This document shows, piece after piece, positions 29,858 to 38,068 of a stretch of 64,000 nt of DNA (its first letter is position 1; each line of letters starts with the position of its first letter). Location of the stretch: positions 2,720,001-2,784,000 of the forward strand of contig CAXXHB010000003.1 in NCBI GenBank assembly GCA_963664815.2, written 5' to 3'. This DNA is from Spirochaetota bacterium (GTDB taxonomy: Bacteria > Spirochaetota > UBA4802 > UBA5550). A program made the position numbers and the translations under genes. Under the pieces are notes generated by a model that was not told where the DNA came from, searched no databases, and saw nothing but the letters and a program-made list of their open reading frames with translations.

Positions 29858-30256
29858 TTATTCCCAATCTTCTATTTTAAGTCTATCTATTCTTGAAAAC
29901 TCTTTAGTATTATGCGTCACGAGAATAAGATTATTGCGCATTGCAATGGCTGCTATCTGCATATCATATGCACCTATTAAGCTTCCAGTTTTTTCAAGAA
30001 TTGACCTGATCTCACCATAAATAAAAGCACAGTCATCATCAAATGATAAAGAATTAAATGGAGCAAAGAACTGATTTAGTTTCTCTGTATTTTTAGTTTT
30101 GTTTTTACTTTTTAATACTCCATATATTAATTCAGATTTAACTATAGAACAGAGAATGATATCTTCAGGTTTAAAGCTCTGAAGCTTTAATTTGACAGGT
30201 TCAGAGTCACCATTTATAAATTTAATACATACATTGGTATCAAGCAGATATTTCAT
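29858..30256 (-). CDS. vapC: VapC/PIN toxin
   Basis: YLLDTN, SEL, DMQIAAIA, LVTHN.KEF. Confidence 0.93.
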   Translation of the reverse strand: MKYLLDTNVCIKFINGDSEPVKLKLQSFKPEDIILCSIVKSELIYGVLKSKNKTKNTEKLNQFFAPFNSLSFDDDCAFIYGEIRSILEKTGSLIGAYDMQIAAIAMRNNLILVTHNTKEFSRIDRLKIEDWE

Positions 30257-30477
30257 TTTATAGTAATCCTTTCAATAATATCTCCCTGAGTACCTCTGAT
30301 TATTTTTTCTGATTTCATAAATCCATAGGTTTCTTTAAAAAAATTTGCAGGCCATGATGAGGCTTTATTTTCTTCGATAAGTATGATTATTTCTGCGCTG
30401 TTGCCTTTATATTTTTCAAGCTCAGGTATAACAAGCTTGCCTGACTTTATATCCTGTTTAATTTTTATTGCTATCAT
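30253..30477 (-). CDS. Antitoxin partner of VapC
   Basis: 74 aa, ATGA overlap with vapC, W...FF...YG motif. Confidence 0.75.
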   Translation of the reverse strand: MIAIKIKQDIKSGKLVIPELEKYKGNSAEIIILIEENKASSWPANFFKETYGFMKSEKIIRGTQGDIIERITIK

Positions 30478-30530
30478 GAAGAAACCTCCTTTACATCATA
30501 AAGATAGTTTAAGCAATTTATCCTGTTTGA

Positions 30531-30740
30531 GTCAAGTATCTTTAAGATTTGTTATAATATAATAATACGTGTGGGAAATACTGTTGAATAAATTTTTTTA
30601 TGTATTTAAGGAATACTTTTTATTTATTCAGCTATCCGAACACGATTACGGGATTAAGGGATTTACGGGATTGGTATCACAGCGGTTCTTTTACTTTGAA
30701 GATTCGCATTGTTCATAAAACCGGCAAAATTAAACCGGTG
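30531..30740. repeat. Composite intergenic element, copy A (no hairpin units)
   Basis: GTCAAG end, AT-rich segment, core GAACACGATTACGGGATTAAGGG...AAACCGGTG. Confidence 0.85.
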
Positions 30741-30754
30741 AAAAGCAGCAAATT

Positions 30755-31762
30755 CTAACCGCTGTTGACAATTGCATATTTCCCTTTTTCTGTTATTCTG
30801 TATCTCTGCAGACGACTGTTGGGTTTGTCCGGTATTGTCATTTCAATCACCCCCACTTCAATTGAGGGTTGTATATATCTCTCACGGAAGTTCTTTTCAT
30901 CTTTTAATCCGAGTTTTTCCTGAATTTCTTTTCGTGTCATATCTCCATTGATTATTAAAAGCATTTTTTTAACTTCGGGTGTGACTTCAGGTGTGACTTC
31001 GGGGGTAACGGTCGTCCTTAACGCTTCCGCAATCATTCTGAGCATAAATTCAATAAAGAATGAAGAATCGGCCTTCTTTGTGCTTTCTTTTATTGCGTTA
31101 TAATAATCCGCCTGATGCCTGAAAACGATGCTTTCAACAGGTATATTTATAAAAACCGGATTCCATTTATAAAGAATCAGGGTCTGCCACAGCCTTCCGA
31201 TTCTGCCATTGCCGTCTTCAAAGGGGTGGATAAATTCAAACTCATAATGAAACACAGAACCTGCAATGAGAGGATGGTGGTCAGTATTTTTCAGCCACCC
31301 CAGAAGGTTTTTCATAAGCATGGATACACGGTCAGCCGGAGGCGCAAGATGAACCACCTTCTCACCTGCCATCACGCCAACGCCCCCTTTTCTGTAAGCG
31401 CCCGGTTTATCAAGCAGCCCATCCATCAATATCTTGTGAGCTTTAAGTATATCCTTTTCTGAATATGGGAACCATTTATCAATACTGTCATAAGCACGAA
31501 TCGCGTTGTGCACCTCCATGATTTCACGAGGCGTGGCTATTACTTTTCTACCATCCAGAATTGCAGTAATCTGCTCTTCGCTCATGGTATTCCCCTCTAT
31601 GGCCAGAGAACCCTGGATTGTCTTAACCCGGTTAACCTTCCGCAGACGCAGATTATCAGAATGATCAGTGAACGCAGTAATACGGCCTACCATTTCGGAT
31701 ATTTCAGAAATGAGTGATATAACTGCCGGTGTTATTTTAAATGGAGGCATGTATTCAGGCAT
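30755..31762 (-). CDS. Fic family AMPylase with C-terminal wHTH
   Basis: [16 protein letters not shown] x3 linker. Confidence 0.93.
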
Positions 31763-31809
31763 TCCGGTTGTTCTCCATAGTTTATTTTATAACTCTTTTT
31801 TACCACCCT

Positions 31810-32084
31810 AACCTGCTGTTCAAACTGCGGTATCCGGAACATCGGTTGAGGCTGATTGATCTTAACAATCCATTCATCACCGGAGGGATTTTTCTCCTGT
31901 TTCCAGTGATGACCTTTTGGCAGATCATCAATCATCAGTTTATCATTGAAATAGCGGTTATTTCAATATATATTCACCATAACATGTATGCACCTGGCAG
32001 CCTGTAATCATTTCATCATCAAAAATTAGGATCATCACAAAACATCGATATTATAATACTAAAAAATCTGATTATCTCAGGCAT
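31810..32084 (-). pseudogene. DUF4160-like pseudogene
   Basis: MPEIIRFFSIIISMFCDD then a stop; VHTCYGEY in another frame. Confidence 0.65.
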
Positions 32085-32109
32085 AATTTAACAGCTTACT
32101 TTCAGCGAT

Positions 32110-32586
32110 GTCAAGTATCTTTATGATTTGTTAAATACTACGTTTGAGGGAGTTAATATTGTGTTTTTTAAGAAATATTTTTTACAGATTACTACTACAT
32201 TGTCTGAACACGATTACGGGATTAAGGGATTTACAGGATTGGCATCACAGCGGTTCTTTTACTTTGAAGATTCGCATTGTTCATAAAACCGGCAAAATTA
32301 AACCGGTGGTGACATTCCCGTTTCGACTCCGCTCAACGGGCGGTGTTTGAGTGAACCTGCTCGTTTCGACTCCGCTCAACGTATAATGCACGAATGAACA
32401 TGCTCGTTTCGACTCCGCTCAACGAGCGGTGCGCGAGTGAACATGCTCGTTTCGACAGGCTCACCAACCGTGATGTCGAAGGGCTTGCCTTGAGCGGAGT
32501 CGAAGGGATCCTGTTTCTTGTGGTAGTGTCAAATACCGAAAACAGTATTATGAAAATTCCTGAATCCTTTAATATCGATTCGGACA
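32110..32586. repeat. Composite intergenic element, copy B (most complete)
   Basis: GTCAAG end, core, 3 hairpin units, tail, right arm ending TTCGGAC. Confidence 0.88.
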
Positions 32587-32621
32587 GTTGTTGCTTACCG
32601 GTTAATTGTCCGCTCCTTGAT

Positions 32622-36568: not shown

Positions 36569-36667
36569 TCATTGAGATAGCGGTTATTTCAATATATATT
36601 CACTGTAACTTGTATGCACCTGGCAGCCTGTAATCATTTCATTACCAAAAAATCTGTTCCGAGCATA
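36568..36667 (-). pseudogene. Second DUF4160-like remnant
   Basis: About 75 bp similar to 31943-32017; GGAGGAG RBS retained. Confidence 0.6.
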
Positions 36668-36691
36668 ATTAAACTCCTCCCTTTCAGCGAT

Positions 36692-36957
36692 GTCAAGTAT
36701 CTTTATGATTTGTTGATTACTACGTTTGAGGGCAGTTGATATTGTGATTTTTTTAGAAATATTTTTTATAGATTACTATTACACTGTCTGAACACGATTA
36801 CGGGATTAAGGGATTTACAGGATTGGCATCACAGCGGTTCTTTTACTTTGAAGACTCACATGGTTCATAAAACCGGCAAAACTAAACCGGTGGTGACATT
36901 CCAGTTTCGACTCCGCTCAACGAGCGGTGCGCGAGTGAACATGCTCGTTTCGACAGG
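36692..36957. repeat. Composite intergenic element, copy D
   Basis: Closest to copy B; ends at TTCGACAGG. Confidence 0.88.
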
Positions 36958-37148
36958 TCCAGAATCATCATTTATGAATTTAATACATACATTTGTTTCA
37001 AGCAGATATTTCATTTTATAGTAATCCTTTCAATAATATCTCCCTGAGTACCTCTGATTATTTCTTCGCTGTTGCCTTTATATTTTTCAAGCTCAGGTAT
37101 AACAAGCCTGCCTGACTTTATATCCTGTTTAATTTTTATTGCTATCAT
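36952..37148 (-). pseudogene. Decayed duplicate of the vapBC pair
   Basis: Copy of about 30195-30477; antitoxin has an 87-bp in-frame deletion, vapC cut after about 21 codons. Confidence 0.88.
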
Positions 37149-37183
37149 GAACAAGCCTCCTTTACGTCAATGCCTTAGCTACT

Positions 37184-37420
37184 TTATAAAATCAGAAGCT
37201 CTGTTTTTTTATTATCAGACTCGTTTATAAAGGTAAATGGTTTACCTTCAAGTACACCCAACTGTTCACCTGCATTAAGCAGTTCTATCCCGTAAACCTT
37301 CCCGTCCGGCGCTATATCTATATTCAGCTCATCACTTATTCTGATTGTTTTAACATTCTCAACCTTATCACGCAGTCTTATATATCCAATATTAAACTTT
37401 GAATCATAGCTTATTTCCAT
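37184..37420 (-). CDS. DUF2283 antitoxin-like protein
   Basis: MEISYD....GYIRL...ID...DG...GIELLNA. Confidence 0.85.
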   Translation of the reverse strand: MEISYDSKFNIGYIRLRDKVENVKTIRISDELNIDIAPDGKVYGIELLNAGEQLGVLEGKPFTFINESDNKKTELLIL

Positions 37421-37430
37421 ATACTACCTC

Positions 37431-37685
37431 TTAATTAAAAAACTTAACAATAGCTGTTATTACAAGCCAGCTATTATTTTCATTAATTCCAAATACTTCA
37501 ATCTGTTTTTGCCTGTAATGCCTGCCATTCCTCTCATTATTATATGGTAAAGTAAGCCGGAATCCCATTCTGCCGAATTTTGCCGGAAACATTTCACCAG
37601 TTAATATGGTTTTAATCACTTCTCCTTCTTCAGCTCCACGCTACTTAATCCGCTGTGCAGCGTGAGGATGCAAAATCACTTCCAT
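37431..37685 (-). pseudogene. DUF4258-like toxin with premature TAG
   Basis: MEVILHPHAAQRIK*RGAEE...VITA; stop at 37641-37643. Confidence 0.75.
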
Positions 37686-37783
37686 CGGTTTACTCTCCCC
37701 AATCATGCAATTACCATGTGTGATAATCTGATCCGAAAAAGTAACCTGAGTTTATTCCAGATTAAATCTAATCTAAATATTGA

Positions 37784-38038
37784 GTTAAGTCTCTTTACGG
37801 ATTGATAATTGTAATACGCCGGAGTTGTATAAATTTAAAAATTTTTAATTGTCTGGGCACGATTACAGGATTAAGGGATTTGCATCACAGCGGTTCTTTT
37901 CCTTGAAGATTCGCATTGTTCATAAAACCGGCAAAATTTAACCGTTGGTGACATTCCTGTTTCGACTCCGCTCAACGTACAATGCACGAATGAACATGCT
38001 CGTTTCGACTCCGCTCAACGAGCGGTGCTTGAGTGAAC
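37784..38038. repeat. Composite intergenic element, copy E (diverged)
   Basis: Core with a small deletion plus 2 hairpin units. Confidence 0.8.
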
Positions 38039-38068
38039 TTTTATTTGAGAAATATTTTTACAGTTTTA

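Follow-up and report, generated by a model that had tools for sequence, protein, structure and literature searches.

A conserved promoter-like head before toxin–antitoxin and defence modules in a spirochaete chromosome, a candidate counterpart of phage PeSL cassettes

Promoter-early stem-loop (PeSL) cassettes of T4-type phages are described, in the available text of the two papers on them (Arbiol et al. 2010, PMC2839356; Comeau et al. 2014, PMC4122927), as a stem-loop followed by an AT-rich tract, a sigma-70 promoter and a Shine–Dalgarno sequence; they take part in exchanges and give rise to mini-circles without a known recombinase. Here we describe an array of toxin–antitoxin (TA) and defence modules in a 64,000-nt stretch of a Spirochaetota genome (G000:C3:2720001-2784000, hereafter the window), analysed together with the 5.2-Mb genome. 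Modules of the array are preceded by a conserved sequence of ∼65 bp, which we call the head and which ends in the 15-bp box TAAAGATACTTGACT. The analysis established the head itself, its spread among relatives, its co-oriented clustering, the variable order of the modules and the positions of their junctions. With a probability of roughly 0.6 the heads are a chromosomal counterpart of PeSL cassettes, with modules shuffled by short-homology recombination.

The likeness to PeSL, within what the available text of those papers covers, lies in a repeated intergenic composite that heads unrelated, non-essential genes in variable regions and that has exchange points varying within the repeat. Both traits were found here at the sequence level: a repeated sigma-70-like promoter with an AT-rich upstream tract stands before unrelated non-essential genes, and copies have exchanged at variable points of the repeat. 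The heads differ from PeSL in residing in a bacterial chromosome with TA and defence cargo, not in T4-type phage genomes; in having hairpins that are borrowed, interchangeable and genome-specific families of repetitive extragenic palindromic (REP) sequences outside the conserved unit; and in the concentration of junctions on a single box of 15 bp. For PeSL, demonstrations exist of promoter activity, termination and mini-circles; the heads are predicted promoters. By analogy, the head appears to work like a PeSL without being a member of that group.

Two other types of described system share parts of this organization. Integrons and clusters of attC sites lacking an integrase, including the Treponema-type chromosomal integrons (PMC3607928, available text), likewise consist of tandem, co-oriented, small TA-rich modules that vary between genomes; the present array is unlike them in that its joints carry no attC (AAC...GTT stem), each module has its own promoter and there is no linked integron integrase (IntI). 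The nuclease-associated REP-like repeats of the Ssn/SRM type (PMC11893778) show, for ssnA, the repeat–nuclease–repeat layout seen here around GIY-YIG and GxxExxY genes. As far as the available texts go, these repeats and the GTAG/CGTC repeats (PMC3733652) cover the hairpin parts only, have no promoter head and leave the box unexplained; the word TTCGAC is absent from the main text of both papers. The literature searched, without supplements, yielded no account of this head, nor of any TA array on a chromosome that resembles PeSL. One study (PMC11065993) reportedly concerns shared regulatory sequences before viral anti-defence genes.

An earlier note on this DNA had listed five copies of a composite element (A to E, at 30531, 32110, 34424, 36692 and 37784), and all five are present on the minus strand, co-oriented and in the order given there: hairpin units, a core of ∼105 bp, an AT-rich spacer, the box and the cargo (Table 1). 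The number of 43-bp hairpin units is 0 in copy A, 3 in B, 5 in C, 1 in D and 2 in E. The cores are 81–96% identical to each other, and since the full core occurs at only these five sites of the genome, the copies are not due to chance. The spacers are homologous, with identity of just 32–89%. In copies A, B and D the box reads TAAAGATACTTGAC(T/A) and ends in TTGAC. Copy C has the variant TAAAGA--CTTGACA, located ∼20 bp farther from the spacer than in the other copies, and copy E has TAAAGAGACTTAACT with the ending TTAAC.

The earlier note took the whole composite for the portable unit. This was not borne out, since REP families form mosaics in its hairpin and core parts that are specific to each genome; what is conserved is the head, which consists of an A/T tract, a CGTAT(A/T) box and TAAAGATACTTGACT and recurs in relatives. 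The exact 15-mer was matched 40 times in 15 of 64 family genomes from four genera (two matches for the reversed control), and all 11 contigs with at least two exact matches have them co-oriented. A profile model of the head, built from sequence only, found matches in 19 of the 64 genomes. The two-box pattern was detected in five of 39 family genomes and in none of the 361 other genomes of the phylum that were searched, many of these genomes being incomplete or available only in part. Where records with this motif have titles, the label is uncultured Leptospirales or Spirochaetota. Fourteen matches from the genome collection outside spirochaetes lack the rest of the head, and five pattern matches in viral contigs look like chance occurrences in unrelated phage DNA. 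Conservation of the box within the set of heads is partly circular, as the heads were collected by using it.

Behind 37 labelled heads we counted ∼19 types of cargo (by our own labels, many of them backed by Pfam), with PIN, ParE, PemK, Fic, HEPN/MNT, DUF4160/DUF2442, DUF433/DUF5615, MqsA-like and addiction-module genes. Only one of 21 DUF4160 homologues (the query itself) and three of 30 vapC homologues, all chosen by protein, have the full box before them; judging from these sequences, the head is not the native promoter of either family. Seven other vapC promoters match the box at 12 of 13 positions in a different upstream context. A different vapBC family, present in many genera (L217, L221-L227, L229, L231, L232), has a conserved promoter with the direct repeat ATACTTG..ATACTTGAC, often located directly after an attC-like GTTAT end; this repeat is likely an operator and possibly an entry match to the box. 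The notion that AAAGATACTTGAC is an extended −35 consensus of the genome was rejected: it has 22 near-matches versus 12 ± 8 for shuffled words, and no such extension was observed among 75 strict or 880 loose promoter-side TTGAC sites.

Incomplete heads were also observed. In G000 a partial head with the exact 15-mer lies outside any TA array, before an sbcD-like gene named by resemblance (C3:2336643-2336693), and a head without the TTGAC half (C3:868333-868393, L175) has an hsdS-like gene on one side and, on the other, a DUF4160/DUF2442 pair that adjoins a GxxExxY gene. In G001 and G006, GxxExxY genes have only the left boxes in front of them.

A TAnnnT hexamer is located 17 nt past the −35 hexamer in 22 of 45 non-redundant heads and 18 nt past it in another nine; given this −10-like sequence at a fixed spacing, the head is a predicted sigma-70 promoter. 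A sigma-70 consensus scan listed copies C (12/12), B (10/12) and A (9/12) as promoters, although it discriminates little, as it returned 35 sites in the whole region versus 30.5 expected. The earlier note had proposed a hybrid promoter with a donated −35 and a −10 supplied by the cargo. Such a scheme fails as a general rule: in G084 an mcrC gene has joined the right half of the box by way of its own ATAAAGAT, in a fusion that uses only the left 8 bp of the box, so the crossover took place to the left of the −35, which went with the cargo. The scheme is further weakened by orthologous cargos, which also lose similarity right past TTGAC (identity 0.42 in five pairs versus 0.37 in 85 pairs of different cargos); a drop of similarity at this point therefore need not mark a junction. 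Known hybrid promoters derived from insertion sequences (IS) use an outward −35 at the end of the element. The heads resemble them in having the −35 hexamer at the end of a repeated segment but lack terminal inverted repeats and a transposase; moreover, heads have their −10 at a fixed spacing, and in one fusion it is the cargo that retains the −35.

Comparison among relatives revealed that the order of modules differs between genomes, as the idea of shuffled modules had required. G084, G085 and G086 draw on the same gene pool (72–95% nucleotide identity), with a different order and with heads at different places. We mapped junctions for 51 heads (1275 pairs) in alignments anchored on the box; 33 of the pairs share a long flank. 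Among pairs with different cargos and a shared left flank, seven end 0–1 nt past TTGAC and four others end at 5, 9, 22 and 28 nt. Among pairs with the same cargo, nine end 0–7 nt before the box, while four others, with low scores, reach 18–50 nt. Binomial estimates for this clustering (∼5e-4 and 1e-5) are rough, given the box-anchored alignment and the lack of independence among pairs. The nearest neighbour has the same cargo for six of 29 heads when the upstream part is compared and for 14 of 29 when the downstream part is. Near-identical cargos with unrelated upstream segments from the box outward were observed, as was the reverse. An early reading in which all boundaries were ragged was overturned by this mapping.

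The expectation of a sharp breakpoint at TTGAC is thus borne out in part: many junctions lie at the box, but it is not the only site, since others lie in the ribosome-binding site (RBS), the core and coding DNA. Within the core of A–E there are three mutually incompatible site patterns (C+D, C+E and A+C). One head has exchanged fic for a nucleotidyltransferase pair, with the switch ∼155 nt into the cargo; different cargos share 74–76% of the 50 nt past TTGAC (maximum for shuffled sequences, 68%); in copy D vapC and REP sequences are joined at a 12-bp near-match. The strongest case against one fixed crossover is the mcrC fusion in G084, with its exchange point left of the −35. The junctions away from the box would fit short-homology recombination.

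Reciprocal sharp junctions at the box, and its conservation across four genera while both flanks diverge, could also be produced if TAAAGATACTTGACT were a recombination core doubling as a −35, with box-to-box cassettes moved as circles by an unlinked, trans-acting recombinase, perhaps an integron-like integrase working on a non-attC site. We consider this unlikely. Many junctions are off the box, located at the RBS, in the core and in coding DNA and not at the single G/TT crossover of integrons, and the segment upstream of the box does not move with the upstream cargo. The two inverted arms of ∼11 bp around a 6–8-bp overlap that characterize tyrosine-recombinase core sites (pdif, att) were not found in 50 heads, where the only symmetry is a partial dyad with 3-bp spacing (5.4 of 11 matches). 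A Xer/dif model was likewise rejected for want of two-arm symmetry in the box. On its opposite strand the box matches GTTRRRY at six of seven positions; the single mismatch, however, falls in the essential GTT. No recombinase was found in the neighbourhood: apart from an IS-type integrase core, neither a site-specific recombinase nor an HUH enzyme is encoded by the 68 scanned representatives of 283 neighbouring open reading frames (ORFs).

The statement of the earlier note that no attC or integrase is visible holds for the copies but not for the genome. Our attC scan found no sites at copies A–E, two at the integron locus of the genome and four at another array; its sensitivity is incomplete, as it found none in a third reported array. 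None of the 15 box-positive genomes has an IntI above the TIGR02249 cut-off of 265 bits. A 357-aa integron-like integrase (G000:C3:1972136-1973209, L170; 220.7 bits) is encoded 780 kb from the array. In most of 12 loci this integrase is followed by a conserved attI-like site ending in GTTRRRY and then by canonical attC sites, a Treponema-type layout, so that the enzyme has sites of its own. Its close subfamily (E up to 1e-100) is present in nine of the 15 box-positive and five of the 49 box-negative genomes, which would favour a trans-acting enzyme; still, the association is confounded by genus, and weaker homologues occur in 50 of the 64 genomes. We also rejected the core as a decayed attC of the fic cassette. 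In copy A pairing of AACAGCGGTT with AACCGCTGTG is possible, but the resulting fold lacks significance (z −1.3, −1.7), the ends are non-canonical and five fic homologues checked, of 13 found, have no core after them. With respect to an undescribed integron-like cassette system, then, a portable promoter-bearing element does head TA and defence modules in arrays across relatives, but 'integron-like' overstates the case: there is no attC and no linked recombinase, and the element works like the already described PeSL.

The box is also an imperfect dyad, TAAAG-ATA-CTTGA, overlapping the −35. As an operator of a host or island regulator (XRE or C-protein-like) it could co-regulate the modules, with junctions clustering merely through its conservation. 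HTH_3 genes just upstream of heads in G084, G085 and G086 would agree with this idea, as would boxes before sbcD and a STAS gene. We regard it as very unlikely, given that no regulator is common to most arrays (the HTH cluster occurs in three of 13 genomes clustered), most homologous TA modules have no box, neither recA nor lexA is among the near-matches listed and homology extends far past the size of an operator.

Both hairpin families are dispersed across the genome. The ∼40 bp of the core nearest the spacer have 41 matches genome-wide and flank GxxExxY nuclease genes in G000 and G003. The 43-bp unit contains a 14-base word that is present 58 times, in 19 clusters, and that flanks a small GIY-YIG gene. 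The inner ∼65 bp of the core have no match in 60 relatives, plasmids or viral contigs; this segment is private to the genome. In the arrays of relatives other hairpin repeats occupy the place of the hairpin and core parts. Rfam gave three sub-threshold matches, none at copies A–E. A model with REP-associated tyrosine transposases was rejected, as no Y1_Tnp was found in this genome; so was an IS91 model, with Y2_Tnp in three of the 15 box-positive versus 25 of the 49 box-negative genomes and thus no co-occurrence. An HUH-mobilised element would be expected to have a cognate HUH transposase co-distributed with its repeats, and these searches found none. Between a sensor kinase gene and a patatin gene (window 26707-27603) lies a tandem array in which the 43-bp REP unit, with small variable patches, is present 21 times; it has a CRISPR-like period without unique spacers.

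The cargo families named in the earlier note are broadly right, but many of the genes are broken and the 'DUF4258' gene behind copy E has an in-frame stop and no family match. In cargo B the DUF4160 gene is a pseudogene, as is its copy in cargo D. Cargo E includes a deleted second vapBC, 93–96% identical to cargo A, and the intact mcrC matching the fragment in cargo D is 9.5 kb away. The frameshift in the DUF488 partner is not an assembly error, because the region is letter-for-letter the same in runs X1 and X2. The array in this genome is also decaying through short-homology deletions. These broken cargos, several of which are near-identical fragments of neighbouring genes, might be explained if the array were only what local duplication and decay had left behind in a defence island, with the head kept as a good promoter, the hairpins selfish and the shuffling incidental. 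The genome-wide dispersal of both hairpin families beside nuclease genes, the private inner core and the loss of similarity past TTGAC in orthologous cargos point the same way. What makes such an origin improbable is that the same architecture, with different hairpins and cargos, is found in 15 genomes of four genera; that the segments upstream of near-identical cargos are unrelated from the box outward in some cases, and vice versa; and that the AAAGATAC extension is not a general promoter trait of the genome.

In our preferred explanation the PeSL-like head is likely a recombination joint that swaps TA and defence modules while keeping them switched on. A module might first be captured through a short match to the box, e.g. 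the ATACTTGAC native to other TA promoters of the family. Tandem copies of the head and the local REP mosaic, the latter presumably homogenised within each genome, would then provide longer homology, allowing neighbouring modules to enter or leave by recombination. At the heads the host's homologous or microhomology-mediated recombination would swap, delete or duplicate modules. Crossovers in the 15-bp box would be likely, and would let the cargo keep its promoter, because the box is the longest sequence common to all heads and includes the −35; selection would act against an antitoxin that lost expression. For upstream transcription the REP hairpins may serve as terminators, and cognate nucleases may nick them. 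DNA may enter by transformation; ComEC and DprA are present in the genome.

Several observations weigh against this explanation. A match of 15 bp is short for RecA-dependent exchange, and the sharp clustering of junctions may need more than host recombination. The counts behind that clustering are themselves non-independent and box-anchored. Promoter activity of the head is predicted only, and copies D and E gave no promoter in the sigma-70 scan. Some heads precede non-defence genes: sbcD in this genome and a STAS gene in three relatives. As to the terminator role known from PeSL, the core alone folds no better than its shuffles (z ∼0) and the terminator scan gave no consensus match in any REP block, so the role is unsupported; element B does fold strongly (z −4.0), probably by virtue of its REP units, since no strong fold is seen for the core by itself. 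In favour of the explanation, copy D is connected to cargo B in contigs of two studies, with 4626 and 4582 bases skipped; the two connections differ in position, one being within cargo DNA and the other at the box. These joints may be real deletion variants or assembly paths through 32–34-bp repeats; they were called at 88–90% likeness, and both samples still contain module C. No backward joint spanning a module was seen in the contigs, which is uninformative on rare circles.

Table 1. Features of the array and its surroundings (window coordinates)
Feature	Position	Strand	Description
Terminal REP block	29530..29745		Two 43-bp units and hairpin; closes the array, no head after it
Cargo A	29858..30477	-	Intact vapBC; PIN toxin 29858-30256, antitoxin 30253-30477
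Head A, predicted −10	30506-30511	-	TAAACT
Head A	30530..30599	-	A/T tract, CGTAT(A/T) box and 15-bp box TAAAGATACTTGACT (30530-30544) overlapping −35
Core A	30635..30740	-	∼65-bp genome-private segment and ∼40-bp GxxExxY-flanking repeat; no 43-bp units; abuts fic stop codon
Cargo B	30755..32084	-	DUF4160 pseudogene/chimera (∼31920-32084); intact fic (30755-31762; SoFic-like)
Head B, predicted −10	32085-32090	-	TAAATT
Head B	32109..32169	-	Box 32109-32123
Core B and REP units	32200..32507	-	Core 32200-32310; three 43-bp REP units with terminal hairpin 32311-32507
Cargo C	32622..34325	-	DUF488 gene (33438-34325) and frameshifted partner; PADLOC candidate system PDC-M19A/B
Head C	34423..34512	-	Variant box 34423-34435; consensus promoter TTGACA-16-TATAAT; upstream boxes 34471-34512
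Core C and REP units	34542..34868	-	Core 34542-34650; five 43-bp REP units
Cargo D	34868..36666	-	DUF4160 fragment; antitoxin 36153-36383 with PIN pseudogene; PBECR2-like/DUF2283 pair; mcrC fragment
Cargo D, mcrC fragment	34868-35337	-	Internally deleted; 98% identical to 44382-44945
Cargo D, PBECR2-like/DUF2283 pair	35383-35942	-	Intact
Head D	36691..36754	-	Box 36691-36705
Core D and REP unit	36785..36954	-	Core 36785-36894; one 43-bp unit and cut-off unit joined to vapC fragment
Cargo E	36949..37700	-	Broken toxin-like ORF, DUF2283 gene (37184-37420), deleted vapBC copy
Head E	37783..37847	-	Variant box TAAAGAGACTTAACT 37783-37797
Core E and REP units	37849..38038	-	Core 37849-37949, 9-bp deletion; two 43-bp units
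Upstream defence island	38645..61995	-	Source of several fragments: mrr, MNT/HEPN pairs, mcrBC, Olo-like genes, type I restriction-modification

Other observations concern the surroundings of the array. Just upstream of copy E is a divergent pair of small ORFs (window 38069-38582); similar ORFs lie beside arrays in G084:C1 and G086:C176, where they adjoin an XRE gene and a DUF6266 gene. In run X3 the contigs are interrupted within fic near 31663-31666, which points to an insertion carried by another strain. A DDE transposase (39671-40972) is part of a multi-copy IS, since its contig depth is several-fold higher in all four runs. A four-gene block between mcrB and hsdR (48369-53866) has weak PADLOC matches (TIR effector, OloA, OloB). 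Inside the type I restriction-modification locus are three 522-bp direct repeats (58413-59756), two of which contain identical 111-aa genes, presumably DUF559-like, flanked by a GC-rich hairpin repeat; in arrays of relatives this repeat stands in for the 43-bp unit. Farther away, at 22910-23914, is a gene for a predicted 359-aa lipoprotein with six 141-bp coding repeats.

The array bears on the question of how TA and defence genes accumulate and turn over in chromosomal defence islands without an integrase. The head offers a concrete route, as the shared promoter sequence is also the preferred joint and, therefore, swapped modules would remain expressed. This would extend the PeSL principle from phages to bacterial chromosomes. 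If the box were instead a site-specific recombination core, every insertion would rebuild a working promoter, and spirochaetes would have a second, promoter-based gene-cassette system. Within the family the 15-mer is a practical marker of candidate defence genes, with known TA types, a PADLOC candidate system and unannotated ORFs behind it.

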